Shown here: positions 3,954-63,648 of the stretch, in pieces
Layout: every line of letters starts with the position of its first letter
Numbering within the stretch: the first letter of the stretch is position 1
Virus record (IMG/VR): IMGVR_UViG_3300012012_001194
Location: 1-64,000 of that record
Direction: 5' to 3' (one strand)
From: a virus
DNA length: 64,000 nt
The notes under the pieces: generated by a model
Seen by the model: only the letters and a program-made list of their open reading frames with translations
The model's database searches: none
Told to the model about the DNA's origin: nothing
Translations under genes and position numbers: made by a program

Positions 3954-5765
3954 TTAGTACAGTACAGCAACGGCTTCAATCAAGCCAACCTCGCCAGCGT
4001 AGCCATCAGAGGCTAACCTGTTAATCGAGAAGAAAACTATGTCTTGGCCGCTTATGCCTGTAATTGCAGAGCTGTCGATATCGATGTACTCGTCAGCAGC
4101 CAGCGTCGTGCTGGTGCTTATAGCAAGCCCTGTGTCTGTTGTTGGTAAGCTTTCTGGGGACCCAGAAGTTTTAGAAAGTACTCTGTAGCTAGCTGTGAGC
4201 GACGGAATAGTTCCAGCCGATCTTCCTAAAACTCTAAGCCTTAACTTTAGGCTTGGAGTATCTGGAAACGCGTCTTCATGAGGAAGCAAAACCTTAAGTC
4301 TAATAGAACTAGCTTGTACTGGCGGAAGGGCTAGGTACATTATTTCGTTGTAGTATCTCTCTTTAGCGTCGCTAAGCCTTACTATTTGCGGTTGTATAAT
4401 CCTCTCAGATGGCTCTATATTAGCTCTTATGGTAACGATGCCTTGATGGAGAGTGTCCCCATCATCAAGTCTGCTAAATGTTGAGGTGATGGTTACGCTA
4501 TTATCTGCCGCCTTAAGGCCCTCGATAACTCTGCCCCTTTTAAACTTACCACCTACTACGTTCTTGAAGGCTAAGGAGCCTAACTCTGTGTTGCTGTCAA
4601 TCGCTAGGCCTAGGTCTACCCCTATCTTAAGTGCTCCGGTGTTGGCCGGTTTATTATCATAGCACCCGATAATGCTGATGCCGCTTCCTGGGATTGGGTC
4701 CAAGCTTGTCACTACGGTCTTGTCCACCCCGTAAGACGACTTAACAAACCGAAGTAGTAGCTTCCTAGTTATGTCCCTAGGGCACTCAGCTGGGGATAGT
4801 GATGATCCTGACATGGATGATACCGATAGTGAAGAGCTAGACCCTAAGCTTTGGTAAGCCCACGGTACATCGTTGTAGCAGTCAGACATCCACCATATAC
4901 CGTTTATGTCTATATATACTAGGCCGCTAAGGCCCATAGGTAGCTCAACTCCGTTTCCATCGCCTTCGCTTTTAAATAGAGTCACACTTGAAGACTCTGC
5001 TGGCATGGGAGGGAATACATTATATAGGGCGGTGTGGGTTTTTAAGTTATACCCAAATGTCGCTTTTGTTGGTGCAAGGCCTTGAAATGAACTATCGTCG
5101 GCAGGAAGCCAGCCTTGCATTGTGCTGTCAACATTGATGATGCTATGTCTCCCGTTAACTTCAGGAGTTGGGGAGTCACCGCACGGAGTTAAATAGAGAT
5201 CAAATTCGTAATGTACATGATTAGACGGCCCGTCTCTAAGCTGAGGTTGAACAAATACAATACCATCTCCGTCATAGTGAAGCACAGCTACGTCAGCTAT
5301 TGCAGGGCTTTTTGATAGCTTTCCCTTTACTTTACCTGAAAGAAAGTAACGACCTGGCTCGGCTGCCGAATTATCATCAATGACTGAGGATATATTGATA
5401 GCGCCCCTGCCTACTAATAAGATGTCTGCAATCTCAGCGCCGTGCTTGTACAACACAACCCCTAGCACATCCGATAGTGGAGACGTCTCCAATGTTCTTG
5501 TCTGCTGATTGAATTCAAATCCAGCCAGCGCTCGTTCAAATCTAGACCTAGGTCCGTTCCAGCATACTGCCATGCCTACGGTTAAGTCAGGCTCCACGGC
5601 AGAGTCATATGCAACAAGGGCCTCCTTGTTCTCAATACCGTCAACACGGTCTTTGAGATACTGGGCCTGCCCTTCCAATGCTCGAGTTGGTCGGCTATCA
5701 ACTTTAGCCTCAATAGGCTCGCCGTCACGAACATGCTCAACTTTATTTGTCCAAGATGAAGACAT
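3954..5765 (-). CDS. Putative tail fibre/baseplate protein
   Basis: 603 aa; N-terminal RPTRALEGQAQYLKDRVD resembles fibre-attachment helices; Ser-rich linker; synteny. Confidence 0.55.
   Translation of the reverse strand: MSSSWTNKVEHVRDGEPIEAKVDSRPTRALEGQAQYLKDRVDGIENKEALVAYDSAVEPDLTVGMAVCWNGPRSRFERALAGFEFNQQTRTLETSPLSDVLGVVLYKHGAEIADILLVGRGAINISSVIDDNSAAEPGRYFLSGKVKGKLSKSPAIADVAVLHYDGDGIVFVQPQLRDGPSNHVHYEFDLYLTPCGDSPTPEVNGRHSIINVDSTMQGWLPADDSSFQGLAPTKATFGYNLKTHTALYNVFPPMPAESSSVTLFKSEGDGNGVELPMGLSGLVYIDINGIWWMSDCYNDVPWAYQSLGSSSSLSVSSMSGSSLSPAECPRDITRKLLLRFVKSSYGVDKTVVTSLDPIPGSGISIIGCYDNKPANTGALKIGVDLGLAIDSNTELGSLAFKNVVGGKFKRGRVIEGLKAADNSVTITSTFSRLDDGDTLHQGIVTIRANIEPSERIIQPQIVRLSDAKERYYNEIMYLALPPVQASSIRLKVLLPHEDAFPDTPSLKLRLRVLGRSAGTIPSLTASYRVLSKTSGSPESLPTTDTGLAISTSTTLAADEYIDIDSSAITGISGQDIVFFSINRLASDGYAGEVGLIEAVAVLY
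5477..5492. repeat. Dispersed palindrome copy 1 (GTGGAGACGTCTCCAa, 15/16)
   Basis: Inside 3954..5765, read as LETSPL. Confidence 0.9.
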
Positions 5766-5779
5766 CAGTCATACCTCTG

Positions 5780-6370
5780 TTATTTGAACTGCTCGGTCCA
5801 GCTTACTCCTATCTGGCTTGAAGCCTGCTTTAAAACCTGCTGACCTTCAGGGTAGTACTCCCTAGCAAATATAAGATCTCTAGTCCTATCTTCCAACCTT
5901 GGGGTAGCAACCAGAGCCAGCCCAAACACGGTACTATTAGCTCCAACAGAAAATGGCTTCCCATGTACGCCAGCGCTTCCCGTTGTTTGAGCAAAGAACG
6001 TAAGCTGATTTACCACTACGGACGCCCCTTCATAACCGCTTATAAGAGATGCCTTTGGGCTTGATATCAGCTGCAGTCTTAGGAAGTCTCTATCTGCACT
6101 GGCTGAGAGCGCAGAGTAGTACTCTATGCCATCAGCCCTATCAAATGCAGGGGCAGATACCACATCGCCAGGGGATGCTACGTTCTCAAATTCAATGTAC
6201 ATTGCGCTTATCTTGTACTCTTCCTTGCCTTCACCAAAGAGCTTGCAAGCTATCTCGCCCCAAGTCCACTGGATCTGGTTATGGAATGACGCCCCTGGAA
6301 TCCACAGCCCTGCGCTGTTGATTTCATATGACCTTATAAACCCATTTACTTCCGCTATTTTATTAGCCAT
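5780..6370 (-). CDS. Putative baseplate/fibre-attachment protein
   Basis: 196 aa; located between the wedge-like gene and the fibre-like genes. Confidence 0.5.
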   Translation of the reverse strand: MANKIAEVNGFIRSYEINSAGLWIPGASFHNQIQWTWGEIACKLFGEGKEEYKISAMYIEFENVASPGDVVSAPAFDRADGIEYYSALSASADRDFLRLQLISSPKASLISGYEGASVVVNQLTFFAQTTGSAGVHGKPFSVGANSTVFGLALVATPRLEDRTRDLIFAREYYPEGQQVLKQASSQIGVSWTEQFK

Positions 6371-6377
6371 CGTAACC

Positions 6378-8927: not shown

Positions 8928-8928
8928 A

Positions 8929-9282: not shown

Positions 9283-9285
9283 GGC

Positions 9286-9690
9286 TTATCCCTCTATAGC
9301 GTCTAGTATGGTTTGAACGTCGTTTTCATCTATCATGCTGGCTGCTTCAGATATAGCCTGCTCAATCAAAGTAATAGCTGGGTCACCAGCTACGCCTTTT
9401 GGTATCTTCACACCCTTGTCTTTAACTCCTGCCCTGATGATCTTCCTTATCTTAATCTTATCTAGAAGGCCTGGTTTTCTGATTCGGTTAAGCGCTTCTT
9501 TGGGGGTATTCTTGCATATCTGGTTTAGCCTTATGAGGTTTACAAGGATCGATACAAGCGCCGAGATAACCACAACTGTACTTATCACAAACCCTTTGGC
9601 ATCTAGCTTGTCTTTAAGGCTTGGGGCTATCTTGTCAGCTAGTTGGTTTACATTATTCATTAGGACCTTCCTTAGTGGAGACGTCTCCAC
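9286..9690 (-). CDS. Hypothetical single-pass membrane protein
   Basis: 134 aa; hydrophobic FVISTVVVISALVSILVNLI; start may be this GTG or the internal ATG (MNNVNQ). Confidence 0.7.
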   Translation of the reverse strand: METSPLRKVLMNNVNQLADKIAPSLKDKLDAKGFVISTVVVISALVSILVNLIRLNQICKNTPKEALNRIRKPGLLDKIKIRKIIRAGVKDKGVKIPKGVAGDPAITLIEQAISEAASMIDENDVQTILDAIEG

Positions 9691-14328: not shown

Positions 14329-14790
14329 TTAGCCGCCGTTGGCACTTAGTTCAATTAACTTTTCTATATATCCCAGCACCCCGTATGGAGATTGAAGCGG
14401 ACCATCTCCGCTGCCCTGCCCTCTTCTTCTTCCGGCTGAGAAAGCTTCTGATCTGGCTAAAGAGCAGTGCCTTAAACGAAAGGCTCGCTCCATCGCTTGA
14501 AGATAAGCAGACTGCAGCCTGACGACCTTGGCATCGCCATCAGTTCCTGGCGAGGCTTGGTTGTAAACATCTTGGCAGTTGCTGTCTAGCTCCCCTCTGC
14601 TAAAGGTGTCTCTTACAGCAGCATAATTACCAGGATCTTTGCCCTTGTGGTCTGCAAGCTCCCAAACGCGGGCTCCACCATTAAACATGGCGTCAGCCAT
14701 TTCATTTGACTGCGCAGCCATCTTCGTAATGTTGTCTTTAAACCTAGTATCTGGGCTACTGACCTTTGATATTCCGTAATAGTCACTCAT
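14329..14790 (-). CDS. Hypothetical protein
   Basis: 153 aa; ATGA overlap with the sigma gene. Confidence 0.7.
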   Translation of the reverse strand: MSDYYGISKVSSPDTRFKDNITKMAAQSNEMADAMFNGGARVWELADHKGKDPGNYAAVRDTFSRGELDSNCQDVYNQASPGTDGDAKVVRLQSAYLQAMERAFRLRHCSLARSEAFSAGRRRGQGSGDGPLQSPYGVLGYIEKLIELSANGG

Positions 14791-15617
14791 AGCAGACCCA
14801 TCCTTTCACGGCTGTCCATCTTCTTTTGAATGTCAGCCCTTATTTGGCTTACCCTAGCCGGGGTTATACGCAGCTTGTTAGCAATACTAATGTTATCTAA
14901 TATCTTCTTACCATTCATCCCAAATGTGTGCTCCATGATAAGCTTTGACCTATCGTCTAGGCCGTCATGGACAAAGCCTCTCCAAGCATCGCCTTGCTGC
15001 TGCCCCGGTATAACTGATGATGGATCTGAGGCGTCTTCACTTTCGGAACCTGCAAATGCCTGAGTAGCTGCCCCTTCTGAAAGGCCAGGCTTAAAGCTCC
15101 TAACTCGCTCTATGCGCCTGCCGCTTAGTCCTGTGTAGTCAGCTAGCTCAGAGTCATTAGGCTCTCTACCCAGCTGATCCGTAAGTTCGTTAAATGAGTT
15201 ATTGACGTAGTGGCTGTCAATCCTCACTCTTTCAGGGACATTTAAAATTTGGTTAGACTTAGCTGCAGCTCTTTTTAGGCCTTGGAGGTGCCACATCATA
15301 TGAGTTTTAAGCTTGGACTTTTCTGGGTCATAACTTCTTAGCCCATCCAGGGCCATGCGCTTGGCTTGCAGCTTAACGCTGGGAGAAGCCTCTGCGCCTA
15401 CGTAAGTTTTTATGGCGCTGTCTATGATAGGTTTTAGCTTTCCTACCATCATATCGTTTTGCTCTGGGGATTGGTTTTGCTTCCAAAGCCCGTAATGCTC
15501 ACCAAACTCAGGCTCAATGTTTGAGCTTGGTTTTGGCGGCGTGCCAGGTGCTTGTGGCTTTTGTTTATCTAGAGAGAACATGTTGGGCACTTGTTCAAAC
15601 GGTTTCTTTGGTTCCAT
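14787..15617 (-). CDS. RNA polymerase sigma-70 family factor (group 3, FliA/WhiG-like architecture)
   Basis: Region 2 (GLRSYDPEKSKLKTHMMW), region 3 (LTDQLGREPNDSELADYTGLS), region 4 HTH (IANKLRITPARVSQI). Confidence 0.88.
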   Translation of the reverse strand: MEPKKPFEQVPNMFSLDKQKPQAPGTPPKPSSNIEPEFGEHYGLWKQNQSPEQNDMMVGKLKPIIDSAIKTYVGAEASPSVKLQAKRMALDGLRSYDPEKSKLKTHMMWHLQGLKRAAAKSNQILNVPERVRIDSHYVNNSFNELTDQLGREPNDSELADYTGLSGRRIERVRSFKPGLSEGAATQAFAGSESEDASDPSSVIPGQQQGDAWRGFVHDGLDDRSKLIMEHTFGMNGKKILDNISIANKLRITPARVSQIRADIQKKMDSRERMGLL

Positions 15618-24045: not shown

Positions 24046-24381
24046 TTACTCAGACTTTTCCTTATCTATCCAAGGCCTTGCGGCTTTGTCATAGGTATCG
24101 AATAGCTGATCCATACTTTCCCATGCTTGATTGAATAGATCAGCAGTACCGTAGCCCAAGGCACCAGTATACCTTAAAATAGCAAGTTTAACTACCTCTG
24201 CAGATTTATTTGAAGAGTAGGACTGTGCCAACCATTTTAGCCTTAAATTCCACTTGCGATCGAGTACATTGGCGTGTTTAAAGTCTACAACGCCATGAGA
24301 GGCTAGCTCAACAAGAAGGGCACTTACACGATCGCTCGCCAGAAATTTGAAGACTCCGCCATAACCTGAAGCTTGTCGCAC
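24046..24381 (-). CDS. Tail assembly chaperone T segment (expressed as a G-T fusion by -1 frameshift)
   Basis: -1 frame overlapping the end of 24324..25538; lies directly before the tape measure. Confidence 0.75.
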   Translation of the reverse strand: MRQASGYGGVFKFLASDRVSALLVELASHGVVDFKHANVLDRKWNLRLKWLAQSYSSNKSAEVVKLAILRYTGALGYGTADLFNQAWESMDQLFDTYDKAARPWIDKEKSE

Positions 24382-25538
24382 AAGGACTGGAACTCGAAAT
24401 AGGCATGACCTATTACAGCTCTAATCCCTTCTGTTGGTATGTGGTTGTCCAATATATAGTTTAAGAATGGGATTAGCTTTTCTTGTAGGTTCTTGAAAGA
24501 CTGGTCTTCTATATTAGCGTCAGCTAAGGAAGGTATCTCGACCTTTCCGTAGCTCACAGACTCAACACTCTCCAAAGACATAACCATTCGGTATGCTTGG
24601 AGGTTTCGCCAATAGAAGTCTGTGCCAGCCAAAATCCTACCATTATAGTCTATCTGGCCGTCAATTACGATCTGGCGATAAGCTATGTCAGACTCTTTAG
24701 TGGTTAAAGCTTTAAATGTTACTTTAAACTTGCCGCCAAATAACTCATAAGTCTTTCGGTGTCTTGTGCCGCCTAGGATCGATTGCACAAAGTCTTGCTT
24801 ATCAAGTTCGGTAACCTCTGTTAGGTCGACCTTCTTAAGGTCCCAACCACAATGTGGACATTCTGGCATTAGATCAAACATAGGGCGTGTAGGCTGTTCT
24901 ATGGTGTTGTCCTCTGGCATGATACTAGGCTTCTCCTTGGCTGCCTTAGGCGGACGACGAGTTTCTGCGGCATTAGTTTTAATATCATTGATAAAAGCAA
25001 TCTTCTCTTCTTTGGTCTTCTCTGCTTTTGGGGGCGGCGGAGTTGGCGCTTCTTCTTTAGTTGTGGAGACGTCTCCACTAGCGGGGGCTGCCTTAGCCTC
25101 TAGCTTAGGAGTAGGCTTGAGGTCATCTGGAATCACTGCGGCTTTAAGTGGATTAGACTTTTCTTTAGATTTATTAAAGGCATTATCATGAGCAGCTTTT
25201 AGCTCGTCATACCTAGGCTTGTCTTCTACTATCTCTTTAAGAAGCGCTAGCCCTTCTTCTATTTGTCTTCTTTGCTTAAGCGGCACCTTATCAAGCGATA
25301 CTGGGTTTCTAACTTTATTTAAAATAGTGTTATAAGCAGCCATGTCCGGCTCAGAGGCGGTTTCAGTTACAACCTCAGGGATTGGGGCTTCTCTTCCACT
25401 TGTTATAGCGTCTATCTCTTTTTGAAGCTCGTCTAACTTGCCTTCTTTCTGAAGTTTAAGGGCTTTAATCTCAAAGTCGGTCAGTGAAGAGGGCTTAGGT
25501 TTCCCAGCCAACGGCGGGTCCTTTTCATTCTCACTCAT
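24324..25538 (-). CDS. Tail assembly chaperone G with long disordered N-terminus and CxxC
   Basis: 404 aa; position before the T segment and tape measure; CPHCG; ends SNFW. Confidence 0.7.
   Translation of the reverse strand: MSENEKDPPLAGKPKPSSLTDFEIKALKLQKEGKLDELQKEIDAITSGREAPIPEVVTETASEPDMAAYNTILNKVRNPVSLDKVPLKQRRQIEEGLALLKEIVEDKPRYDELKAAHDNAFNKSKEKSNPLKAAVIPDDLKPTPKLEAKAAPASGDVSTTKEEAPTPPPPKAEKTKEEKIAFINDIKTNAAETRRPPKAAKEKPSIMPEDNTIEQPTRPMFDLMPECPHCGWDLKKVDLTEVTELDKQDFVQSILGGTRHRKTYELFGGKFKVTFKALTTKESDIAYRQIVIDGQIDYNGRILAGTDFYWRNLQAYRMVMSLESVESVSYGKVEIPSLADANIEDQSFKNLQEKLIPFLNYILDNHIPTEGIRAVIGHAYFEFQSLCDKLQVMAESSNFWRAIV
24342..24348 (-). other. Programmed -1 frameshift slippery heptamer A AAT TTC
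   Basis: X XXY YYZ in the correct phase (TCA AAT TTC), five codons before the chaperone stop. Confidence 0.75.
25063..25078. repeat. Dispersed palindrome copy 3 (perfect 16-mer)
   Basis: In the disordered part of the chaperone, read as SGDVST. Confidence 0.95.
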
Positions 25539-32122: not shown

Positions 32123-32746
32123 TTAGGGCAGGTAAGAAGATAAATTAACCCTCTTTAAAATCGGCCCTTGCTGGGCCACTGTCCAAACCTCTTGTCCAGT
32201 GTACTGTATGACTATGGGAGCTGCATAGTTCTCTTTTGCTTCTTCTAACTGGAAAAGTTCTCCAAGCTCCACTGCTTCAAACTTAACTAAATTAAGGATA
32301 TTTGCAATAACTAATCCGTAGGTATTCAAATCTTTAAATACTTCTCCAGAAATTATCTCAGATTGTGCTCCACTATTTGATATGCAAAACAGAGTATGGG
32401 AGCCTGTCATAAGCCTTCCATATCGCTGTGATCCTAGGTGAACGTTGTCTATTCCAGCGCTGTCATTTAACACCAACCTACTTGAAGCCCAGCTTCCTCT
32501 TTTAATAATTATAGCAGGTCTTTTTTCTGTCGCCTCTGGTTTCCACCTAGTTATTGACTCAATAAGTATGCCAGTGGGCTGTGTAGCCTTCCACAGCATC
32601 CCTCTTAGTTGCTCGGTTTCAATGTTATCAGCGTCAGAAAACCTATTAGTGAGCCAATCCCGCAAAAACCCAGTAACAATATGGGGTGTCATGCCGAGAG
32701 CGCAGAGGTTGTTACCCGTATCAAAAGCGGGTTTAGGATCACTCAT
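32123..32746 (-). CDS. Putative tail terminator/completion protein
   Basis: 207 aa; RPAIIIKRG motif; between neck and sheath genes. Confidence 0.6.
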   Translation of the reverse strand: MSDPKPAFDTGNNLCALGMTPHIVTGFLRDWLTNRFSDADNIETEQLRGMLWKATQPTGILIESITRWKPEATEKRPAIIIKRGSWASSRLVLNDSAGIDNVHLGSQRYGRLMTGSHTLFCISNSGAQSEIISGEVFKDLNTYGLVIANILNLVKFEAVELGELFQLEEAKENYAAPIVIQYTGQEVWTVAQQGPILKRVNLSSYLP

Positions 32747-48647: not shown

Positions 48648-49019
48648 TTATCTAGGTCGCATATTTAATAGGTTTCGAGTCATGCTACCGCTATTCATTA
48701 GGTCGAGCATAATTCCAAACCTTGTCGCCTGGGCCATCTTAGCATAATTACCATTCGAGGTGTTAGTGGAGACGTCTCCACTATTTACCTGAGATACGGC
48801 AGCGGCCTGATTAGATACAGAAGGCAGTAGCGTAGACGGGGCCATGGCCTGCGGAAGTGTGTTTACTTGGGCTGCGGCTTGCGGAGATGGCTTACCAGCT
48901 TTAGCAGCAGAAAGGGGAGGCGTAGCGGATGAGCCGCTGCTGGCGGCAGGCTTAGGAATCGATAAGTCTTTTGGAGAAGCGGCGCCAGCAGCTGCCCATT
49001 TATTAAGAAAATAGCTCAT
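48648..49019 (-). CDS. Low-complexity hypothetical protein
   Basis: 123 aa, Ala/Ser/Pro-rich; coupled to the RNAP gene (TAATG). Confidence 0.6.
   Translation of the reverse strand: MSYFLNKWAAAGAASPKDLSIPKPAASSGSSATPPLSAAKAGKPSPQAAAQVNTLPQAMAPSTLLPSVSNQAAAVSQVNSGDVSTNTSNGNYAKMAQATRFGIMLDLMNSGSMTRNLLNMRPR
48764..48783. repeat. Dispersed palindrome copy 6 (perfect 20-mer)
   Basis: Read as SGDVST in 48648..49019. Confidence 0.95.
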
Positions 49020-50938
49020 TAAAGTACCCCTTTGTCTTCTTTCATGTCTAAGACACCGTTGTCCATTTGCTTAGTGTTATACCCTTTTACTGGGCCTTTG
49101 CGTCCAAAGTCAACAGCCTTAGCTAGAGAAGGAACATAGGAAGTACTTTGCTCATCACTTATAGCCCCACGATGCACAGCTTGCAGAGTCGACTTTTTAA
49201 GGTTACTACCAAGCATGCGAGTCATCCAGTCGGGGTCATGCTGAAGGTTTTCTAGCCCACGGACAAAGTGAGGCTCAAAAGGAGCGGGCTTATTATGGAC
49301 GGTAACCTTACCGACGCCGAAGTCATTAAAGTCATTAATCATCGAAGGCTTAATCTTAGTACCTATGGTGTAGTGCAGAACTGGCTGCTCTAAATAATTA
49401 CCTACTGATTCACTAGGGGTTACTATTCTATGTCCCTCTCTAGGTTCCCAGTCGTGCTCCACTGAGTCATAGGGGACAACATCATCTGGGGCAAATTGTT
49501 TGTACTCATCCGTAAGCTTAATGTGATTAATAAGCCCTTTCGACATAACCTCAATATTACGACGATTACCGCCCATGCCGGCGTTTCTCATAGCACCTTT
49601 GAAAGCTTGAACAAACTGCCTGCGCCCTTCGCCTATGCCTTTGAACTTAGTCAACTGAGCAGGGTTTGCTATGCCGTCAGAAAGGGTGTCGCCAGCCTCT
49701 ACTGTATCGTTGAGCTTTACAGATACTGCGGCTTCAGGGTTAACATAGTGGTCTACCCCGTTGATAGCTACAAAATACCCGCCGGTTGCTGCTGGCTTAA
49801 TGCCTGTAACCTTTCCATCTGTCTGTGCGTGGGCGGCCCAGTAAGGAGACTGCTTAGGCGCCTGCACCAATTGATTTAAATGTTTAAACCCTGATACGGC
49901 TCCTGCGGCTCCGGCTACGCCACCAGTATGCTTTGAGCTCAGCTGCCCTTGGGAGATTGGCTCCGAAAGCGCTTGCATCGCAGCAATACCTACAGAGTCT
50001 CCAATAGGAGCAAAGCCTCCCCGCTCTCTTATTCCTAAGTCTCTAGAGTAAAGTCCGCCATCGGGAGCGCCCATGGCTATTGGACTACGAACTAGAAGCC
50101 GTTTAAGGTTCTTAGACTTTAAATCTTTAAGTATTCTTGGAGTTAAGACGGTGTTTCTGCCATACCCTCCAGCCGGCATAGCTAGAAGAGCGCCCTCGTT
50201 ATCATCATCCTCGATGTCTACAGGAAGCCCGCGGTTTTCAGACCTCGTAGGATCCTCAGCGTCGTCGCCTACCACGATCATCCTATGGCCGATTTGATTA
50301 AGCTGCTTTGAGAAGAACCCAGCGTCCATGGTGGCGAACTTGGTATCCGCAACCCCTTTACGAGCTCCGAAAGCTCCAGCAAAGTATTCTGCAGGGTTAA
50401 GACCTTTAGAATAGGAGCTGAATACCGGAATAGGTATTGGGTTGTCGTGGTGGTCTGTGTAAAGTAAGTCACCGCCCCTTAAGCTTTTAAGGTTCATCGG
50501 CTTACCACGGGACCCAGACTGAATCTGTCTAGCTAGCTGATTATTCTCCCTGACGGAGTCATCGAATATACCCTTCTCCATGTCCTTCTGAGAGTTGTTC
50601 AGCAAGTCGATCATTTGGTTGTTTTTACCGGTCTCGTCGTTCTGAGGGTCAGCCATAATGCTGGCTATGGCGGTTCTAAGCTTAGCCTTTGCATCCATAG
50701 AGTACTTAGACTCTCTGAGATCTTTAAGGCCGAACGAGAACCCACCGCTGCCATAAGCCACATCTCTACCAATGTCGTAGAGCTTCTTTGACACTTCTTT
50801 GTACTTATCAGGGTGCTGCTCCGCTATGGTCTGCATGAGCGCTGCAGAGGACTTAGAATCTAAAGTTCTAGAGTAGTCCTTAAGTTCATTAGGGAGGGCG
50901 TCGTTAACCATGATCTGACCGATGGTGGTCCTAAGCAT
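49019..50938 (-). CDS. Phage DNA-directed RNA polymerase beta' subunit, C-terminal half
   Basis: TTIGQ start, SGSRG, bridge helix EYF...GARKGVADT...T..AG, trigger loop VGIAAMQALSEPISQGQLSSKHTGG. Confidence 0.93.
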   Translation of the reverse strand: MLRTTIGQIMVNDALPNELKDYSRTLDSKSSAALMQTIAEQHPDKYKEVSKKLYDIGRDVAYGSGGFSFGLKDLRESKYSMDAKAKLRTAIASIMADPQNDETGKNNQMIDLLNNSQKDMEKGIFDDSVRENNQLARQIQSGSRGKPMNLKSLRGGDLLYTDHHDNPIPIPVFSSYSKGLNPAEYFAGAFGARKGVADTKFATMDAGFFSKQLNQIGHRMIVVGDDAEDPTRSENRGLPVDIEDDDNEGALLAMPAGGYGRNTVLTPRILKDLKSKNLKRLLVRSPIAMGAPDGGLYSRDLGIRERGGFAPIGDSVGIAAMQALSEPISQGQLSSKHTGGVAGAAGAVSGFKHLNQLVQAPKQSPYWAAHAQTDGKVTGIKPAATGGYFVAINGVDHYVNPEAAVSVKLNDTVEAGDTLSDGIANPAQLTKFKGIGEGRRQFVQAFKGAMRNAGMGGNRRNIEVMSKGLINHIKLTDEYKQFAPDDVVPYDSVEHDWEPREGHRIVTPSESVGNYLEQPVLHYTIGTKIKPSMINDFNDFGVGKVTVHNKPAPFEPHFVRGLENLQHDPDWMTRMLGSNLKKSTLQAVHRGAISDEQSTSYVPSLAKAVDFGRKGPVKGYNTKQMDNGVLDMKEDKGVL

Positions 50939-54232: not shown

Positions 54233-55726
54233 TTACTCTTTACTTCCAATTTGTTTAAGCAAATTAAGGAATTGCTCATTTAATTCCTGCTTTCTATTAG
54301 CGGCAGAAATCAAATAGTCATCCGTAGCTGGTACTGGATCTGCTCCAACACCCACATATCTCAACATAGATCTTAGCCTACCGGGGGCTGTCCTAGCTAT
54401 GTATCTTTCTATTTGAACCTTCCTATCTTCTATAGGGAGGTGCTCATGGCTATCAAAGCGCAAAGCCCTTCCTTCACTCTGACTACTCCTAGCAGTGTTC
54501 CAATGCGGGTCTAATAGCTGAACTAGCTTAGTTCCCTTAAAGGAAAGACCCTCAGTTCCAGACGGGCCTAAGAGCGCAACCTTAAGCTTGTCGGTATTGT
54601 AGTCGTCTACTAAGCGCTTACGCTCTTTATCAGATAGGGCGCCCGTGAAAGAGGCAGCTGGAATGCCAGCTCGGTCTAGCGCCGCTTGATAAGGGGAAAG
54701 CCCAGCATCAATGAAGTTGGAGAAGATCAGGGCTTTGCCCTTGGGGTCTTTATCCAAGAGCCCTTTAAGATTACTAAAGGCAGTGGTCAGCTTGGGCGAG
54801 TCATCAAATGCCTTTTGGACATCTTTGTTACCCTTCATAAATGGAAGAGTAGAAAGACCTACCTGTCTCAGCCCCGTCATGAAGCTGGTCATTCGGCTGA
54901 CCTCTTCCTGCGTCAGCGGGTAATTCATCTTGAGCTTCCATCGAAGCGCAGCAGGAAGCTGCCCCATCATGTAGCTGTTAAGGTCGGTCTGGTTTTGGCT
55001 CATCTCTACGACGACGTCTTTGCGGTTAATCTCAGCTTTGGGAGCCAGAGGTGCAAAGTAATCCACCTTCCCTTGAAGCTTGTTTTTAAGCTGATCTTGG
55101 TTGATGATCGATGGCTCGCCGGGAGCCCCGTTGAAGATGCGCTTGTACCACGGCTGCTTGGGAGCCTCATCCATGTACATGTTACCGAACTCTTCAGGGC
55201 TCATGTCCTCGCCAGTGAGGATGTTATAAGGCACTGTGAAGTCGCTTGGGTCGTTAACTACTGGTGTGCCCGTGAGAAGCACCACCTGCCTAGCCTTTCT
55301 AGCAGCTTCTACTAGGTTCTTGGCTTGAGCCGAGTTTGGATTACGGAAGCGATGAGCCTCATCTACTAAGAGGGAGCCTGGGTTCTCAATCGTACGGCCA
55401 AGCGCTACTCCGGTGTGGCTCATGATGCTACTTGGCGTAGCAGTTGGTTGATCAATAAACTTTTCCTGCTCCTTACGTAAGTTGTTACGTAGAGAAGCTG
55501 GAACTACAGCGGTGTAAGGTATTTTTGACTCGTCTGCTGCAGCTAAGCCGCTTAGTGTTTTTCCAGACCCAAGGCTGTGATAAAGCAACATACGAGCTTT
55601 GCCAGCTGTGTCTAACTGTTTCTGTACCTTATCTACTACTCCCTGCTGGTGCGGCTGCAGCGAGATATTAGGATTAAGGTCAGCCTGTTTTGTGGAGACG
55701 TCTCCACTAATGTAGTCTTGGGTCAC
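54233..55726 (-). CDS. SNF2-family (SF2) helicase/translocase
   Basis: LQPHQ, GSGKT, DEAH, LTGTP, IFSNF, GTEGLS, DPHWN, QSEGRALR. Confidence 0.95.
   Translation of the reverse strand: MTQDYISGDVSTKQADLNPNISLQPHQQGVVDKVQKQLDTAGKARMLLYHSLGSGKTLSGLAAADESKIPYTAVVPASLRNNLRKEQEKFIDQPTATPSSIMSHTGVALGRTIENPGSLLVDEAHRFRNPNSAQAKNLVEAARKARQVVLLTGTPVVNDPSDFTVPYNILTGEDMSPEEFGNMYMDEAPKQPWYKRIFNGAPGEPSIINQDQLKNKLQGKVDYFAPLAPKAEINRKDVVVEMSQNQTDLNSYMMGQLPAALRWKLKMNYPLTQEEVSRMTSFMTGLRQVGLSTLPFMKGNKDVQKAFDDSPKLTTAFSNLKGLLDKDPKGKALIFSNFIDAGLSPYQAALDRAGIPAASFTGALSDKERKRLVDDYNTDKLKVALLGPSGTEGLSFKGTKLVQLLDPHWNTARSSQSEGRALRFDSHEHLPIEDRKVQIERYIARTAPGRLRSMLRYVGVGADPVPATDDYLISAANRKQELNEQFLNLLKQIGSKE
55692..55707. repeat. 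Dispersed palindrome copy 7 (perfect 16-mer)
   Basis: In the N-terminal leader of the SNF2 gene (SGDVSTKQA). Confidence 0.95.
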
Positions 55727-55728
55727 GG

Positions 55729-58700
55729 CTACTCCACTATGACAACTTTGTCGTTGGCATCAATCTCGCCGGAACGGTACGCACGCATGGCATCAGCCTT
55801 AGTCTTGAAGTACCTCTCTGGCCTCTTAGATGCTTCAGAAGTGGCGGTGTAGAGCCCGCCTTGGTATTCATTCATTGGCAACTGATGAACCTTGAAGTTC
55901 TTTACAGCGAACAGGTTTCTGCTGGGTAGCATCTTCTCCATAGCGTCTTTAACCGCTTCGTCAGTAGTAGGCACATGGTAGTTCATAGCATCGCCATCGA
56001 AGTCGGCGCCAAACCCTTTTACAATAATAGGAGGAACTTGAAGAGTACTTCCCTTAACAAGGGTAGGCCTAAACGCCATAACCCCATATCTATGTAACAC
56101 TGGAGCACGAGTAATGATAACAGGTCTTGCTTCCATCTCAGAAGTCATGGCATCCATAGCCATCTTATCTTTATTCTCTATCATTTCTGCGGCTTTAAAC
56201 CTATCAACTCCACGCCTGACTAATCTTCTCATAATAAATGGCTTATACACTGCCCAAGCCCTGTCTTCAGGGATACCGACTTGATCCATGTCCAGTTCTG
56301 GATTAGGAGTAATAGCAGCCCTACCTACCATGTCAACATTAGATGCTAATAGCTTTCTTTGAAGGACACTGAACTTAGGGTTATCACCAAAGACTTGCTT
56401 TAGTATTCCCTTTACGTTCTTCTGCTCTAACTTTGGATTGGTAGCATCGCCAAGCCCAGTTACGGCTTTGAGGGAGTCATAAACGCTTGTTCTATGCTCA
56501 GAAAGATCAGAGAAGCTCTTGGACGACTCCCTCATCTCGTTGTTAGAGTCGATCAACTCTTTATAAAGATAGTTAGCGTCTCCAACCATAGGCAGCCCGC
56601 TTGACTGCATCACGCTAACTGGCCTAAATAAAGGAGGAAGCACAGGAGCTTTAGACATCATCCAGTCAGATGGATGCATATTCAGTTCTTTAGTGCTCTT
56701 AAGATACCCAAGTTTACGAACTGCTTCATCTCTGTAAGACTTCTTACCAGAAGCTATCTGAGCTCTGGCTTTCATGATCTCTTGGTCGACATTGATCTTC
56801 TTTAGTGCTATCCCAATAGCGTTAGGTCCCTTAACGCCGTTAAGAGCTTCTTTACCAGCTAATACGTCTCTAAATTTGTTCTCTGTTAATCCCAGTACTT
56901 TGCGTATGGGCTCTTCCATAACAGGGTTAGGCATCGGCTCGTGCAGCTTTATGTGGCTCCACATCGTACCGCCATGGCCGCCCGTAAGCTTAGGGTCAAA
57001 TAACCCATCACCGACTGGCTTCATGCCGCCTTCCCAATCTACGGTGTCGGATCGCTTAATCTCACGATCGCCTGAGAGGGAGTCTATATCTCTATCAGTC
57101 AATGCCATGAGCTGTGTCTTGGAGCCGCTGCGCACGGGGTTAATTCCAGCTGCTTGGAGCTGTGCCATAAACTTGCGATAGGTCAAAGGCACTCTAGGGA
57201 TTGGCATAGCCTTGCCCCCCATGAAGGCCGCCCAGTAATCATCGTTCTTCTGGCCTCGAATAGCTCCTGCGTCTCTTAGAACCTCATGGGCCCCGTGAGA
57301 GAGTAGAGCGTTAACGTCCATGAGGGCCATTCTTTTAGATCCGGTCTCTCCGCCTTTAGCCGGGGTCTCTTCAGCGGTGTACCCGCTAGAAATTCCTCGA
57401 CCTTGGCCTTTAGACTCAGAGGTGTGATGCAACTTCATAAAGAAGCGATTGCCTGTGAAGATGTTCTTAATCTTCTTACCTGACTCAGGATCTTCGAGGT
57501 CTTCCATATCACTAAGGTTGTTTTTTCTAAGCTCATCGATAGCGAACTCAGTAAGGTCTTCGATGTTGTCGAAGTCTTTAACTGCGTAGCGTTTACCTGT
57601 CTTCTCAGATATCTTTCCAAGAGCAGCTTCTACCATCTGGCTTGGATTAGTTCGAGTAATAACCCCAAGCGGGTTTAGTAGTACTTCAAAGGGCCGTCCG
57701 TCTGCGCCTTTTGGCATCTTGTCATCAGGAACAACAGTGGAGATAACTCCTTTATCACCATAACGCCCGGAGAGCTTATCTCCTTCTTTCATGGGGTTAA
57801 GGCTCTTTACCGTTACTGCAAATCCTTTTTTAGTTTGAGCCACGTCGGTAACCACACCTTCGTTCTCGTGATCCCACGTGGTGCTGGCGTTATTAAACCC
57901 AGTCCTAGACCTTCCAACTTGCTGGTTATGGGCTCTTGAGAGTACGTTAGCTTGTAAGATAAGTGGGTCACCTTTTCTTACAACTGTACCCGGCTTAATC
58001 ACACCGTTGTCGTCAAGGTTGTCTACGAGGGCCCTAGAATAATCAGAAGGAAACAGTGTAAGAAACGCCCGCTTTCCAGGCTTGGTGTCTTTGTCAAATT
58101 CAGCCTCATGCTGATACATGTGCTCAGAGGTTAGACGTTTAGCTGCGCCTTCTGAAATAACAATAGCGTCTTCAAAGTTGTAACCCTTGTAAGGTATGTA
58201 GGCGGTTCTAAGATTAGTGCCTAGCGCAGATGTGCCTTTGTCATTAGTGTAGTTAGATCTAGCTAACAAGTCACCTTGGTTGACAACATCACCAACTTTT
58301 ACGGTAGCCGTGTTATGTAGAAAAGTCTTACGGTTGAATGGAAGATTATTATAGATCTCTTTCTTGTGAAGCTGGCCGTCTTCTCCCCGTACATGAATCT
58401 CATCACCATCTACTTTGATTACTTGGCCCGCTACATCAGAGTGTATAGCGCCCATATGTTTACCGTAATCTTCCTCATAAGACTTGTCGTCTTCATCGGG
58501 CATACCTGATTGCACATAAGGGGCTTCAGGGTTTTGTAGGGGTAGCGCCTGCGTAAGCATGCGGGCGCCCATCATTACTCGCTGCCCTTTGGTAGCGCTC
58601 TTAAGAGGAATCATATTGGCTAGCTGATTAAAGGCGTGCTCCATGCGAGGAAGCTCATGGCTAACCTCTGCTCTGTTCACGTACTTGATCTTACCGTTAA

Positions 58701-60204
58701 CTAAAGCAGCTATCTTTTGATTATTAGGATCTCGAAGCTGATTAGGGAACGCCACAACAGAGTCGGCCATCTCTTGAGGAGTTCGCCACACTTGCTCGTT
58801 AGTGTTCACGTCTCTAAATCCGCCATACACCTTTCCATCAATACCTTTTCTGGAGTTGATAGCAATACGACTGTCTACGCCTACTTTGAGAGACTCTGGA
58901 GTTAGCAAGGGGTCTACAAAGCCAAAGTGAGACGGCTGTACGTTACGAGCCTCTTCAGGTACAGATTGCAGCGAAGGGATACCGCCTTCACCGAGGCGGC
59001 TAATCCTAGTTACTTGGTTAAGCAGGTCGGCAGGGTTAACTTCTTCAAGGGGTTGGCCTAACCCGCTAGTCATAATGGCGCCATTAATCTGAGAGTTTAA
59101 AAACCCAGCGCTGAAAGGGCTTAGGTTCTTCCTGAAGCTAGCCTTCCATAGCAGAGGGCGCATTACTCGGTGTGCAGCGTTGACCCTTTCTGCAAATAAG
59201 TCTTCAGGCCCAACCATAGACTGATACGCCATAGCGTCACGGTCGTCTGGGTCTACCTCTTTACGGTGGACAGCTAATATCTTCTTAGTAGCAGCTAAAA
59301 TAGAATCTGCTGATACGTTCTTAAACGGCTGACCTAAAGTGCGAGACGTAACCTCGGGATCCATCTCCATCTTGGCGATAGCTTCTAATATAGATTGCTT
59401 TTTACTCTCTGCGGTATGAATCTCGCCTGCCTTAGTCTTGCCTATCTTGGCAAACAGCTTTTCCATATGGTTTGGATCGTCGGTAGCAGAGTTAGCACTG
59501 TAGATCTCATTACCCCAGGCTTCTCTAAGCTGCTTGTCAGTAGCGCCAAGGGCTTTTAGTAAAGGAGTAACAGGTACAGAGGATTGGCCGAAGCCTATAG
59601 AAAATACACCCTTCTCAGGATCTAGCGAGTAGCGATGGGACGAGCCTTTTCCTGGCATAACGTTGACATGGCTTTCGACTTCACCATTCTTAGCGATACG
59701 AGTGAACACGCCTGGCTTTAGCCGCATTTGATTAGCTAACGTGTATTCAGTGCCGGTGACGATGAAAGTGCCACGGTCGGTCATATAGGGAACTTTAGCC
59801 AGCGTAGTTCTACGGGTGTCTAGCGTATCGCCAGTAACATTATCTGTTAATGTTAGCGTACCTTTAAGTGCCCGATTTAAGGTATCGCCCTTAAGAATTG
59901 CATTCTTCTGTGACTTGATAGACTTCTGCTCATCGGGGTCGTCCCAGCCAATATCCGAAACACTTAAGGTGTGCCTCTGGTTTACTAATGGTTGGATGTT
60001 AGATGCGGCAGCTTGAATACCAGAAAAGATAGCAGTCCTAGTAGCTTTGATATCATCAAACTTGCGCATTGGCGGCGGTACGGGGGGTTGCATAACGGGC
60101 GGCGGCAGGGTAGGAGCTGCCGTAGAAGCAACCAAGCCGACTGGCTTAGGCTTAGTCGGCTCGGAGCTCAGAACACTGTTATCGTCATCAAGTATTCCAG
60201 CCAT
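55729..60204 (-). CDS. Phage DNA-directed RNA polymerase: beta fused to the N-terminal half of beta'
   Basis: beta motifs PYMTDRGTFIV, GYNFEDAIVISE, GDKLSGRYGDKGVIS, LNPLGV, MKLHH; beta' motifs GLFD, PVLPP..RP, RAPVLH and catalytic GADFDGD (55990-56010). Confidence 0.96.
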   Translation of the reverse strand: MAGILDDDNSVLSSEPTKPKPVGLVASTAAPTLPPPVMQPPVPPPMRKFDDIKATRTAIFSGIQAAASNIQPLVNQRHTLSVSDIGWDDPDEQKSIKSQKNAILKGDTLNRALKGTLTLTDNVTGDTLDTRRTTLAKVPYMTDRGTFIVTGTEYTLANQMRLKPGVFTRIAKNGEVESHVNVMPGKGSSHRYSLDPEKGVFSIGFGQSSVPVTPLLKALGATDKQLREAWGNEIYSANSATDDPNHMEKLFAKIGKTKAGEIHTAESKKQSILEAIAKMEMDPEVTSRTLGQPFKNVSADSILAATKKILAVHRKEVDPDDRDAMAYQSMVGPEDLFAERVNAAHRVMRPLLWKASFRKNLSPFSAGFLNSQINGAIMTSGLGQPLEEVNPADLLNQVTRISRLGEGGIPSLQSVPEEARNVQPSHFGFVDPLLTPESLKVGVDSRIAINSRKGIDGKVYGGFRDVNTNEQVWRTPQEMADSVVAFPNQLRDPNNQKIAALVNGKIKYVNRAEVSHELPRMEHAFNQLANMIPLKSATKGQRVMMGARMLTQALPLQNPEAPYVQSGMPDEDDKSYEEDYGKHMGAIHSDVAGQVIKVDGDEIHVRGEDGQLHKKEIYNNLPFNRKTFLHNTATVKVGDVVNQGDLLARSNYTNDKGTSALGTNLRTAYIPYKGYNFEDAIVISEGAAKRLTSEHMYQHEAEFDKDTKPGKRAFLTLFPSDYSRALVDNLDDNGVIKPGTVVRKGDPLILQANVLSRAHNQQVGRSRTGFNNASTTWDHENEGVVTDVAQTKKGFAVTVKSLNPMKEGDKLSGRYGDKGVISTVVPDDKMPKGADGRPFEVLLNPLGVITRTNPSQMVEAALGKISEKTGKRYAVKDFDNIEDLTEFAIDELRKNNLSDMEDLEDPESGKKIKNIFTGNRFFMKLHHTSESKGQGRGISSGYTAEETPAKGGETGSKRMALMDVNALLSHGAHEVLRDAGAIRGQKNDDYWAAFMGGKAMPIPRVPLTYRKFMAQLQAAGINPVRSGSKTQLMALTDRDIDSLSGDREIKRSDTVDWEGGMKPVGDGLFDPKLTGGHGGTMWSHIKLHEPMPNPVMEEPIRKVLGLTENKFRDVLAGKEALNGVKGPNAIGIALKKINVDQEIMKARAQIASGKKSYRDEAVRKLGYLKSTKELNMHPSDWMMSKAPVLPPLFRPVSVMQSSGLPMVGDANYLYKELIDSNNEMRESSKSFSDLSEHRTSVYDSLKAVTGLGDATNPKLEQKNVKGILKQVFGDNPKFSVLQRKLLASNVDMVGRAAITPNPELDMDQVGIPEDRAWAVYKPFIMRRLVRRGVDRFKAAEMIENKDKMAMDAMTSEMEARPVIITRAPVLHRYGVMAFRPTLVKGSTLQVPPIIVKGFGADFDGDAMNYHVPTTDEAVKDAMEKMLPSRNLFAVKNFKVHQLPMNEYQGGLYTATSEASKRPERYFKTKADAMRAYRSGEIDANDKVVIVE

Positions 60205-60205
60205 T

Positions 60206-61153: not shown

Positions 61154-61155
61154 TG

Positions 61156-61506: not shown

Positions 61507-61515
61507 AATGCCTTT

Positions 61516-61932: not shown

Positions 61933-61936
61933 AATG

Positions 61937-62293
61937 TTATCCTAGTATGATACCTGAGTTAGTTACGCTAGCGCCTGTAGACCAGATCCTACGATTATCG
62001 TGTGCTAAGTCTTTTATGACCTTAGCGTCTGTAGGGTCGCCCTGTTCCTTGGCTTCTTGAATGCACAGCATGATGTCTCTAGCCGCTGCAATAATCTGAG
62101 ACTTCTCATCTTGGTGCTGGACTCGGCTGGACTCCTCAAACAAGGCCTTGGCCCTCTTTCTCATGACGCTAATAGGCTCGGACTTGTCAGAGCCGTCTCT
62201 GCCGTCGTGAATACGGATAAGCCCGCCTTCAGCCCAGAATTCTATCTGGTTGTATTTATAAGTCTTCTTAATGCTAATCGAAGGAACATCCAT
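61937..62293 (-). CDS. Hypothetical protein
   Basis: 118 aa; within the operon. Confidence 0.65.
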   Translation of the reverse strand: MDVPSISIKKTYKYNQIEFWAEGGLIRIHDGRDGSDKSEPISVMRKRAKALFEESSRVQHQDEKSQIIAAARDIMLCIQEAKEQGDPTDAKVIKDLAHDNRRIWSTGASVTNSGIILG

Positions 62294-62352
62294 AACCAGC
62301 CCTTTCAGTTAAAACCCAATAATACACTAATTTAAGCAGGCTGTCACTCAGC

Positions 62353-63648
62353 TTATTGGCCAAAGAATCCAGGCACCACTGCCTTAATAGCCCCCGCTAC
62401 AACGCCTGCGCCCTGCAGCGTTCTTTGAGCCTGCGGAGTCAAGCCTACCAAAGCGCCTAAGACTTTGCCACCTAAAGTAGCTTGCACATACCCAGCGCCC
62501 ATACCTAGGCCGACCCTAGCAATGTCCATCGGAGTTATGAAGCCAGTGTTACCCCGCATGTTATTAGCGGCCCCTACTACGCCCATCGTAGCTGCCTGCA
62601 AATACGATGGAGTGAACGGGTCATTTAAAACTAAGCGGTTAAAGGCGTCAACTGGTACCGGCTCTAAACCAAAGATTGATTGATTGTTATTAAAGAAGTC
62701 AGCAGCTTTGCTCATCTCGCTAGAGATACTAGGCTGCAGCTCTGCTAAAGCTTGAGAAGCCTTAATGATTGGAGGCGTAGTATGCGGGTTGCCATAGAGC
62801 ACGTTAGGAGTAGTAAAGGCGTTCCACGCACTAGACTTGCGATCTGGGTTTAGCTTATTATCCCAAGTAGAAGCTCCAAGTACTCCAAGCGCCGCGCCGG
62901 GAGCAGCTCCAAGAGCGCCGCCAAGCATAGCTAAGCGCTTACGCAACTTACCTTTCTCAAATACATTAGGGGCAACGTTCTCAGCTATAGTTCCAGCACC
63001 GTAGCCAAGGCCTGCTGCAAGAGTGCCGCCGGCTACCATCGATGCAAGAGGTGTTGGACCCCCAAAGCGGCTAGCAAAGCTGGAGGGCGTAATCATAGCC
63101 ATTTGAGAGATGGGCCTAAGGATGCTAGATATAGTAGCGCTGGCAGACTTTACTAAAATCCAAGGGTGCTCAAGGTTGGGCCGGCTGACTTTATTAGCCA
63201 CGCCTTGCTTAGTCAAGAAAGTGGAGACGTCTCCACTGGGGACTAACACCTTACCTGAAACTGGGCTGAGCCAAGCGTGCATATTAGGTGAGAGGGCCCT
63301 AGCTATCTTTTCGTAAAGCTTTTTTGATGATGAGATGTAGGTGCTTATAAGCTCGGGCACATGCTGCCACGCTAAATCTTCAGCAATTTTGTTCAGACCT
63401 TCTTGCCTAGAAACAGTGTAAGGGATAATATCCCTAGGTGCGTGGACTTTAAATGCCGTTGGGACGTGCGTTACCCCTACAAACTTCTTATTAAGATCAG
63501 AATCAATGACGAAATCCTCTGGCCTTTCCATGAAGAGCTTCCTCAATATTTTGTTCTTTTCGTGATAGTTACGGTCGTCCGACATCTGCTTCGCTAGAAG
63601 AAGCTGGTGCAGGTCGGCCTTTGGGTTGCGTTCTGTCTCTAGCTGCAT
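62353..63648 (-). CDS. Glycine-zipper protein, first gene of the minus-strand block
   Basis: Likely ATG at 63648 with GGAGG RBS; NKIA, VKSA, SKAA; several GxxxG segments; no Cys. Confidence 0.65.
   Translation of the reverse strand: MQLETERNPKADLHQLLLAKQMSDDRNYHEKNKILRKLFMERPEDFVIDSDLNKKFVGVTHVPTAFKVHAPRDIIPYTVSRQEGLNKIAEDLAWQHVPELISTYISSSKKLYEKIARALSPNMHAWLSPVSGKVLVPSGDVSTFLTKQGVANKVSRPNLEHPWILVKSASATISSILRPISQMAMITPSSFASRFGGPTPLASMVAGGTLAAGLGYGAGTIAENVAPNVFEKGKLRKRLAMLGGALGAAPGAALGVLGASTWDNKLNPDRKSSAWNAFTTPNVLYGNPHTTPPIIKASQALAELQPSISSEMSKAADFFNNNQSIFGLEPVPVDAFNRLVLNDPFTPSYLQAATMGVVGAANNMRGNTGFITPMDIARVGLGMGAGYVQATLGGKVLGALVGLTPQAQRTLQGAGVVAGAIKAVVPGFFGQ
63220..63237. repeat. Dispersed palindrome copy 8 (perfect 18-mer)
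   Basis: Read as SGDVST. Confidence 0.95.

Follow-up and report, generated by a model that had tools for sequence, protein, structure and literature searches.

The 64,000-nucleotide stretch analyzed here (hereafter the window) comprises the first 64 kb of the IMG/VR virus record IMGVR_UViG_3300012012_001194 (101,503 bp, estimated to be 49% complete; G000), which originates from an uncultured freshwater jumbo phage encoding a multisubunit RNA polymerase, a B12-type ribonucleotide reductase, an SNF2-type helicase, and baseplate and tail genes; almost the entire gene set of the record is on the minus strand. Its most conspicuous feature is a short palindrome, the 16-mer GTGGAGACGTCTCCAC, dispersed throughout the genome. 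Allowing for up to two mismatches, eight matches were found in the window, six exact and two agreeing at 15 of 16 positions (last base A), compared with none in 100 dinucleotide-preserving shuffles; the eight positions, the division into six perfect and two imperfect copies and the gaps between them, as given in an earlier note on this DNA, were all reproduced. The whole record contains 14 copies, with six further ones at positions 70332, 73462, 81174, 84015, 95858, and 97655, and every one of them has the 14-mer TGGAGACGTCTCCA unchanged. When three substitutions were allowed, the record yielded no additional sites, indicating that the sites are essentially perfect or absent.

The copies in the window reside in unrelated surroundings, all of the genes concerned being encoded on the minus strand. 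Copy 1 (GTGGAGACGTCTCCAA; 5477-5492) lies at nt 274 of gene 3954-5765, where it is read as L-E-T-S-P. Copy 2 (exact; 9675-9690) is intergenic; the ribosome-binding site AAGGAAGG directly follows it, and the ATG of a small gene (about 9286-9660) comes about 15 nt further on from the copy. Copy 3 (exact; 25063-25078) is read as S-G-D-V-S-T within gene 24324-25538, in a Pro/Ala-rich, indel-rich linker, and copy 4 (exact; 32831-32846) falls in a short open reading frame (ORF; 32746-32952) between two larger genes. Copy 5 (15/16; 40916-40931) is found at nt 1094 of gene 40597-42024, read as I-G-D-V-S-T, whereas copy 6 (exact; 48766-48781), inside the small gene 48648-49019, displays the full 20-bp dyad TAGTGGAGACGTCTCCACTA. 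Copy 7 (exact; 55692-55707) is part of the SNF2-type helicase gene (54233-55726), in which it spans codons 7-12, and is located 22 nt past the stop codon of the RNA polymerase gene, and copy 8 (exact; 63221-63236) is read as S-G-D-V-S-T inside gene 62353-63750. As the earlier note had pointed out, copies 1 and 5 have 21 nt in common, ATAGTGGAGACGTCTCCAATG, in different reading frames.

A scan of viral contigs recovered the 14-mer many times over in at least nine long contigs, and at least six related contigs of freshwater phages carry it at the density seen in G000. Some of these are redundant: G003 and G004 appear to be pieces nearly identical to G001, and G013 is about 94% identical to G001 at the protein level. 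Whole-record searches with at most one mismatch yielded 26 sites in G001 (190 kb, 92% complete), 21 in G002 (181 kb), 18 in G005 (137 kb), 15 in G011 (102 kb), and 11 in G013 (75 kb), that is, one per 6.8-8.6 kb, so that the same word recurs in five relatives at a density similar to that in G000. These genomes are far from identical, with median protein identities to G001 of 75% (G000), 64% (G002), 62% (G011), and 58% (G005), and the G+C content of the word-bearing genomes ranges from 41 to 47%.

Conservation of the word as DNA

When every site was mapped to G001 coordinates, most turned out to be orthologous between genomes, and orthologous copies keep the same codon position in proteins that are 57-75% identical. 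Across the aligned proteins that harbor it, the word is identical, whereas the flanking codons vary both synonymously and non-synonymously; no synonymous change was found inside the word across these orthologs. The L-E-T-S-P copy at nt 274 of a 600-aa protein and the I-G-D-V-S-T copy at nt 1094 of a 475-aa protein illustrate this pattern. Copy 1 occupies the same codon position in G001, G002, and G005, copy 2 has an orthologous slot in the same three genomes, and the orthologs of copy 4 in G001 and G002 carry one mismatch. The comparison of orthologs shows that the word is selected at the DNA level, in agreement with the proposal of the earlier note that the DNA rather than the peptide is conserved. 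That note had also relied on the third reading frame never being used; this is true of the window but not of the relatives, where all three frames occur (GDVS 19, ETSP 16, and WRRL 9 times in five related genomes), and the argument that the third frame is excluded therefore fails. In the polymerase of G002, a change from FRDVNT to FRDVST created TAGAGACGTCTCCA; judging from such alignments, new copies arise by point mutation of half-fitting sequence, not by insertion.

Spacing and turnover of the copies

Among the 89 gaps pooled from these genomes, 32 measure 7-9 kb, which is the mode of a distribution ranging from 0.5 to 25 kb. Compared with random placement, the copies are more evenly spaced in every genome tested, with coefficients of variation (CV) of the gaps of 0.52 in G000 (P=0.008), 0.47 in G001 (P<5e-5), 0.59 in G002 (P=0.006), 0.36 in G005 (P<5e-5), and 0.46 in G011 (P=0.0014). 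A Rayleigh scan for a phase-locked period was not significant, and the distance of about 7.6 kb is thus a preferred distance between neighbors rather than a ruler. Accordingly, the near-regular spacing at about 7.6 kb described in the earlier note stands as a modal gap and as evenness, but not as a strict period. A search of the literature found no paper on evenly spaced palindromes in phage genomes.

Stronger evidence on spacing comes from the turnover of copies. About 16 slots are conserved across lineages, and where conserved slots lie 14-17 kb apart, lineages add one extra copy between them, at differing positions. In G001 coordinates, such slots are found at 25001 in G005 versus 28415 in G001; at 63378 in G000 and G001 versus 66488 in G002; at 132778 in G005 only; at 148892 in G001, 149790 in G005, and 152408 in G002 and G011; and at 163802 in G001 versus 165856 in G002 and G011. 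Copy 7, for instance, is missing from G002, whose polymerase gene instead contains a copy with one mismatch at a distance of 3.1 kb. The 19 non-conserved slots, the relative position u of each being measured in its own genome, are centered between the flanking conserved copies (mean |u-0.5| of 0.136 versus 0.25 expected; P=2e-4). Since lineage-specific copies are centered in this way, selection keeps the density of the word, whichever gene carries it, a pattern that favors an action extending over a few kilobases and speaks against regulation of particular genes. The genome comparisons show that spacing is maintained through loss and gain of copies: the lineages fill the same interval of about 15 kb at different places.

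Anatomy of the dyad

The logo derived from 51 exact copies of three genomes in coding-strand orientation reads t-A-[G/T]-TGGAGACGTCTCCA-[C/A]-[T/A]-a. Its halves mirror each other, forming a symmetric 18-20-bp dyad around the 14-base core, and the sole asymmetry is the frequency of A at position ±9 (46/51 versus 34/51). No information is present beyond ±10, and neither a -10/-35 element nor a U-tract was found at a fixed distance. Among 26 one-mismatch variants from five genomes, 16 are stem-disrupting and 9 are wobble changes, and the central CG is least variable. Mismatches that do not favor wobble, together with an invariable center, fit a reader of duplex DNA rather than an RNA stem, and preservation of the sequence in both halves and in the center is what one would expect if a protein with two-fold symmetry reads duplex DNA. 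Given a symmetric dyad without any element at a fixed distance, a dimeric, two-fold-symmetric reader would be expected, in line with the dimer-binding site suggested in the earlier note. The core holds one AGACGTCT, which we take to be a 'met box' and hence a lead to MetJ, on which we make no claim. In the literature, the word was found in no paper except as a primer sequence.

Gene context of the copies

Most copies are intragenic, up to 2.6 kb from the next gene start. However, five of the 14 copies in the record (9675, 70332, 73462, 81174, and 97655) are intergenic, compared with 0.65 expected (P=3e-4), intergenic DNA making up 4.6% of the record. The view that the copies are embedded in genes thus holds for the majority only, and the assertion that none of them precedes a transcription unit fails for roughly one third of the copies, which are followed by ribosome-binding sites or lie next to early promoters. 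In G001, three copies adjoin the -35 element of early promoters (CTTAAT-N17-CATAAT), and the G000 copy at 97655 sits between a terminator and an early promoter. The intergenic enrichment may mean either that gene gaps tolerate the word best or that its reader also acts on transcription.

Three of the intergenic copies (70332, 73462, and 81174) share a particular arrangement: the TAG in the flank terminates the upstream gene, a gap of only 0-40 nt leads to the ribosome-binding site of the gene that comes next, and the junction separates a conserved downstream gene from a genome-specific upstream gene. At 70332 and 73462, the product of this upstream gene is of low complexity and has a basic tail at its C terminus. 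Such genome-specific proteins (record 70347-70958 and 73477-73776; G001 80205-81944 and 85681-86932), with tails reading KPKGRR in G000 and KLKKKNR or KLKKNR in G001, are encoded by single or tandem genes directly upstream of intergenic palindromes, their number and sequence differing between relatives. The 54-nt leader (record 70278-70331, minus strand) that extends from the palindrome to the PhoH-like gene 69628-70278 is near-identical in G000, G001, and G002, which are otherwise diverged; it may be a structured leader RNA.

The presumed early region (record 97300-98340; 106-110 kb in G001) consists of stacked promoter-terminator units with a long and highly conserved early-type promoter, GCTTAATTC-N13-GCGTCATAATATAATGG, of which about 5-20 per genome were counted by the -10 part. 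Terminators in the stacked units are built of a hairpin, T8, and then AGCTATCAG, true terminators in these genomes consisting of a hairpin, T8, and then AGCTATCA. Within this region, about 600 nt from promoter to terminator (record 97700-98330, minus strand) contain no ORF and no Rfam match, but do contain repeats (CGTCTTGAGCAGGACGTTAA twice and GGATGTGGATGAAACTTCCACA twice, followed by three tandem GAGTTACGGGT past the palindrome), and may represent a non-coding RNA. A sigma-70-type or phage-polymerase promoter was rejected as an identity of the palindrome itself, as there is no information outside the dyad, most copies are intragenic, and a separate promoter consensus (CTTAAT-N17-CATAAT) exists. 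An intrinsic terminator or structural RNA hairpin was likewise rejected, considering the lack of covariation and of a U-tract and the mismatches that mostly break pairs.

Several other genes of G000 deserve mention. RNA polymerase is split such that the beta subunit is fused to the N-terminal part of beta' (55729-60204, minus strand), directly followed by the SNF2-type helicase gene, and the remainder of beta' is encoded by a second gene (49019-50938, minus strand). A weak sigma-like gene (14787-15617; Sigma70_r3, E=4e-5) is located among baseplate genes, and a gene amid the head and neck genes (35032-36291, minus strand) joins a glycosyltransferase family 2 domain to a methyltransferase domain. 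The only large plus-strand gene, which starts at 63682 in the window and continues to record position 66027, encodes the B12-type ribonucleotide reductase, which has an ATP-cone. Its counterparts in G002, G005, and G011 share a conserved copy of the palindrome with one mismatch (slot 74182). Among named phages, Salmonella phage Arash is the nearest, with 31% polymerase identity. Virions of this distant relative contain polymerase subunits and sigma (PMC10585845).

Distribution of the word and candidate readers

In bacterial genomes (596 Gb), the 18-mer form of the word, the only one searched there, has seven matches, about the number expected by chance, and it is thus not a word of the host. 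A Chi-like role was discarded in view of this lack of over-representation of the 18-mer and of the symmetry and length (14-20 bp) of the word. More distant relatives, found via the polymerase at 41-53% identity, lack the word, and searches of G006 (complete, 204.8 kb), G008, G010, and the initial 50 kb of Arash turned up no other dispersed dyad. A very distant relative, G007 (IMGVR_UViG_3300010162_000535, 92.7 kb; polymerase 44% identical), contains six exact copies and variants of TCTCGCGCGAGA(A), compared with 0-1 for permuted-arm controls, and their spacing is not significantly even (CV 0.66). Collectively, these searches show the lattice to be a trait of one sub-clade and the word to be private to one phage clade. 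The chance-level occurrence in bacteria and the absence from distant relatives suggest that the reader is probably clade-specific and phage-encoded.

We therefore consider as candidates the 78 G001 proteins that are conserved in G002 and absent from G006, 60 of which are left when a counterpart is also demanded in G000, G005, and G011 for those regions that these genomes include. Pfam matches among the clade-specific conserved proteins include PhoH, C39 and S8 peptidases, SNF2, MoxR-type AAA, cupins, a sulfotransferase-like protein, CsrA, and DUF6321. The sole clade-specific protein with signs of DNA binding is a 257-aa HNH-endonuclease-like protein (record 67236-68006, minus strand) that matches the PHROG family phrog_3377 (HNH endonuclease; E=2e-42) and carries three C-terminal tandem repeats of a beta-hairpin and a helix-turn-helix (HTH)-like element. 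Its gene is syntenic in all five word-bearing genomes, the protein being 51-68% identical, and in a pattern-based scan of the viral collection its close relatives were found only in contigs of this clade. By our reading of the alignment, the usual first histidine of the HNH motif seems to be replaced (SIERIDNN...). The predicted fold has a mean predicted local distance difference test score (pLDDT) of 62.9, with an unresolved N-terminal domain; a structure search gave Z≤4.3 to small HTH domains, including those of I-TevI and I-HmuI, which is below the useful mark, and a profile search of solved structures returned nothing significant. Considering that shared ancestry confounds the joint occurrence of gene and word, this protein is a lead rather than a finding.

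Proposed docking sites for a phage protein

That some protein reads the duplex is, in our judgment, very probable. More specifically, but only tentatively, we favor the possibility that the copies are docking sites on double-stranded DNA for a putative two-fold-symmetric phage protein with a range-limited action. Such a protein would read all 14 core bases and two or three flanking bases on each side, and its action, for example by spreading, sliding, bridging, or blocking, would reach a few kilobases per site. With so limited a reach, sites would be needed at intervals of about 7-8 kb, placed wherever a gene or the gap between two genes can accommodate one. The dimeric nature of the reader, the limited range of its action and its function are all inferred from these patterns; our preferred guess, following the logic of KorB and its OB operators, is that it would mark or organize the whole phage chromosome rather than regulate single genes.

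Several observations weigh against this reading. The evenness tests on the different genomes are not independent, as the sites are largely orthologous, and roadblocks to transcription or targets of a nuclease would likewise become evenly spaced, with gaps being filled. A role in architecture alone would not call for the placement of a third of the copies at gene starts or promoters. Furthermore, the ParB-like, HTH, or ribbon-helix-helix (RHH) protein envisaged in the earlier note did not emerge. ParB_N (PF02195) was undetected in the six-frame translations of G000, G001, and G002 and then in five genomes (searches at E≤0.001 and E≤10, the control being positive in 10-11 of 14 known genomes), a negative result that leaves room for a very divergent ParB fold. 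Pfam searches with 72 of the 78 clade-specific conserved proteins revealed no classical dimeric HTH or RHH regulator, a result that partly rests on the 25 of 42 matched families listed, with weak matches possible among the others. Finally, the tandem repeats of the HNH-like protein, if it were the reader, suggest a monomer on an asymmetric site.

A more elaborate and more doubtful version of the docking-site reading is that the word is a private 'self' mark at which a non-ParB, clade-specific protein nucleates, covering or bridging a few kilobases from each copy. The whole phage chromosome, and no host DNA, would thereby be coated, compacted, or shielded; the range of the protein would set the 7-8 kb grid, and selection would refill gaps of about 15 kb. 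If so, the protein would represent a new reader family for a genome-wide marking system.

Alternative explanations

The explanation that competes best with docking sites, although we regard it as unlikely, is that the copies are operators or roadblocks of a genome-wide transcription regulator, at which a bound dimer would stop or insulate RNA polymerase, or tune nearby promoters, and so time early versus late expression. The near-restriction of the genes to one strand, the intergenic enrichment, and the position of some copies next to -35 elements in G001 and between terminator and promoter in G000 (97655) are all consistent with this possibility, and blocks spread along a long gene array would favor even spacing too. 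There is also a precedent in the repressor stoperators found throughout Cluster A mycobacteriophage genomes (PMC9283540). However, most copies are deep inside genes, far from the next start, and replaced copies shift between unrelated genes, as from the start of the SNF2 gene to the inside of the polymerase gene. Moreover, the word has no accompanying element at a constant distance, stoperators differ from the symmetric palindrome sites in being asymmetric and aligned with the direction of transcription, and no repressor-like protein was seen among the 72 clade-specific proteins scanned with Pfam.

It is less plausible still that a site-specific endonuclease or nickase, for which the HNH-like protein is a candidate, targets the copies and that its spaced nicks or breaks would seed recombination, replication, or clamp loading, or drive module exchange between co-infecting relatives. 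Here, the endonuclease-like gene is syntenic in the five word-bearing genomes, the pattern-based scan found its close relatives in this clade only, three intergenic copies (70332, 73462, and 81174) coincide exactly with junctions of conserved and genome-specific genes, and proteins that recognize every base of a 14-bp site are more typically nucleases than regulators. Nevertheless, a palindrome nicked on both strands would mean breakage of the phage's own chromosome, and the HNH-like protein may be inactive, given its apparent replacement of the first histidine, and has tandem repeats that suggest an asymmetric target. In addition, the 64-kb structural region is fully syntenic, with no mosaic boundary coinciding with a copy, and the co-occurrence of gene and word has the confounding noted above.

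An action of the word in RNA, as a short mRNA hairpin for an RNase or RNA-binding protein involved in processing, stabilization, or translational control, appears very improbable. The transcript can indeed fold into a 5-8-bp stem with an ACGU loop (-6.7 to -15.1 kcal/mol), intergenic copies have a stop codon on one side and the next ribosome-binding site on the other, and relatives encode a CsrA homolog. Yet there is no covariation, the sequence being kept rather than the pairing; the loop bases are as invariant as the stem; disruptive mismatches outnumber wobble changes (16 versus 9); the stems are short and, in two of the five copies tested, do not fold better than shuffled sequence; the word is not followed by a U-tract; and no Rfam family matches anywhere in the G000 record. 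CsrA recognizes GGA in loops, which also counts against this explanation, as does the fact that csrA was not found in the sequenced part of G000. The CsrA/RsmA-family regulator of the relatives (PF02599, E=2e-21) is encoded at 152096-152281 in G001 and 32596-32745 in G002, in both on the plus strand, opposite to almost all other genes.

Lastly, an assembly, adapter, or cloning artefact, which might be suspected from GAGACGTCTC being two overlapping type IIS sites (inverted CGTCTC, BsmBI/Esp3I), as in Golden Gate designs, and from a spacing that looks engineered, has virtually no chance of being correct and is refuted by the orthologous positions of the word in contigs of many metagenomes at 25-43% protein divergence, its in-frame occurrence inside conserved proteins, the presence of parts of the stretch in the runs of 15 lake or freshwater studies, and an independent contig that spans copy 7 at 55692, with the loose contig ends at palindromes being short matches from other copies or relatives rather than breaks.

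Comparison with known systems

Host bacteria use dispersed, often intragenic palindromes that are read by dimers organizing the chromosome, namely, parS/ParB, NBS/Noc, matS/MatP, and SBS/SlmA. These sites are host-owned, confined to chromosome regions, and degenerate, whereas the word described here is private to a phage clade, genome-wide, and almost invariant, and no ParB fold was found to accompany it. The consensus sequences are TGTTNCACGTGAAACA for parS and TTTAGCSGCTAAA for OB, and the word GTGGAGACGTCTCCAC matches neither, so that identity with either site was rejected; the likeness to parS pointed out in the earlier note, which had already described the arms as different, is limited to the 16-bp length and the ACGT center, with no ParB reader detected in the five genomes searched.

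The stoperators of Cluster A phages such as L5 and Bxb1 are many genome-wide repressor sites acting on the elongating polymerase and not at promoters alone; they are asymmetric, oriented with transcription, and bound by a monomeric immunity repressor of temperate phages (PMC9283540). The genome-wide distribution of one site is shared with the palindrome, which differs in its logo, symmetric apart from position ±9, and in that no repressor was seen among the 72 proteins scanned.

The best-understood mechanistic analogue, and an analogy only, would be KorB with its 12 OB operators on the IncP plasmid RK2, which loads at scattered palindromes, slides, and acts at kilobase range (PMC11790492, PMC13768133). 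In both cases, a near-perfect short palindrome is scattered around a mobile genome at promoter-proximal and promoter-distal positions, and loading followed by sliding at kilobase range would explain the required site density. On the other hand, KorB is a ParB-family CTPase, and no ParB_N is detectable in the five genomes of the clade at E≤10; in addition, the word is unrelated to OB, and no KorA- or TrbA-like partner is known here.

By comparison of site architecture, the closest published match is the 17-bp dyad repeat TGTTCGG-N3-CCGAACA of the Cluster O mycobacteriophages (Corndog and relatives), which is present in 34 copies with invariant arms, 14 of them intergenic, 10 near 5' ends, and 10 inside genes; its function was described as unknown, and its authors predicted a dimeric binder with a role other than transcription initiation (PMC4351075). 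Like the palindrome of G000 and its relatives, it combines invariant inverted arms with dozens of copies throughout the genome of a phage that is non-temperate, presumably so in the case of G000, and the copies are intergenic, at gene 5' ends, or deep inside genes, unoriented with respect to transcription and mostly away from promoters. Unlike it, the palindrome has no spacer, with all 14 core bases fixed, occurs once per 7-8 kb rather than about once per 2 kb, belongs to an unrelated host and phage type (an approximately 190-kb phage with its own RNA polymerase genes), and keeps its even spacing through turnover across genomes with 57-75% identity. No such maintenance of spacing is reported for Cluster O, the five genomes of which are nearly identical (PMC4351075). 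Dispersed invariant palindromes in lytic phage genomes have thus been in print since 2015 without an explanation. What the present clade adds is deep comparative evidence for a DNA word selected inside essential genes, evidence that spacing rather than gene context is kept by selection, which suggests a factor acting over a few kilobases, and a case in which ParB, the obvious reader, is absent from the searches made and for which the 60 clade-specific conserved proteins form the candidate list. If the reader indeed marks or organizes the viral chromosome, such palindromes would reflect a general principle of DNA handling in large phages and would be a source of very specific DNA-binding proteins.

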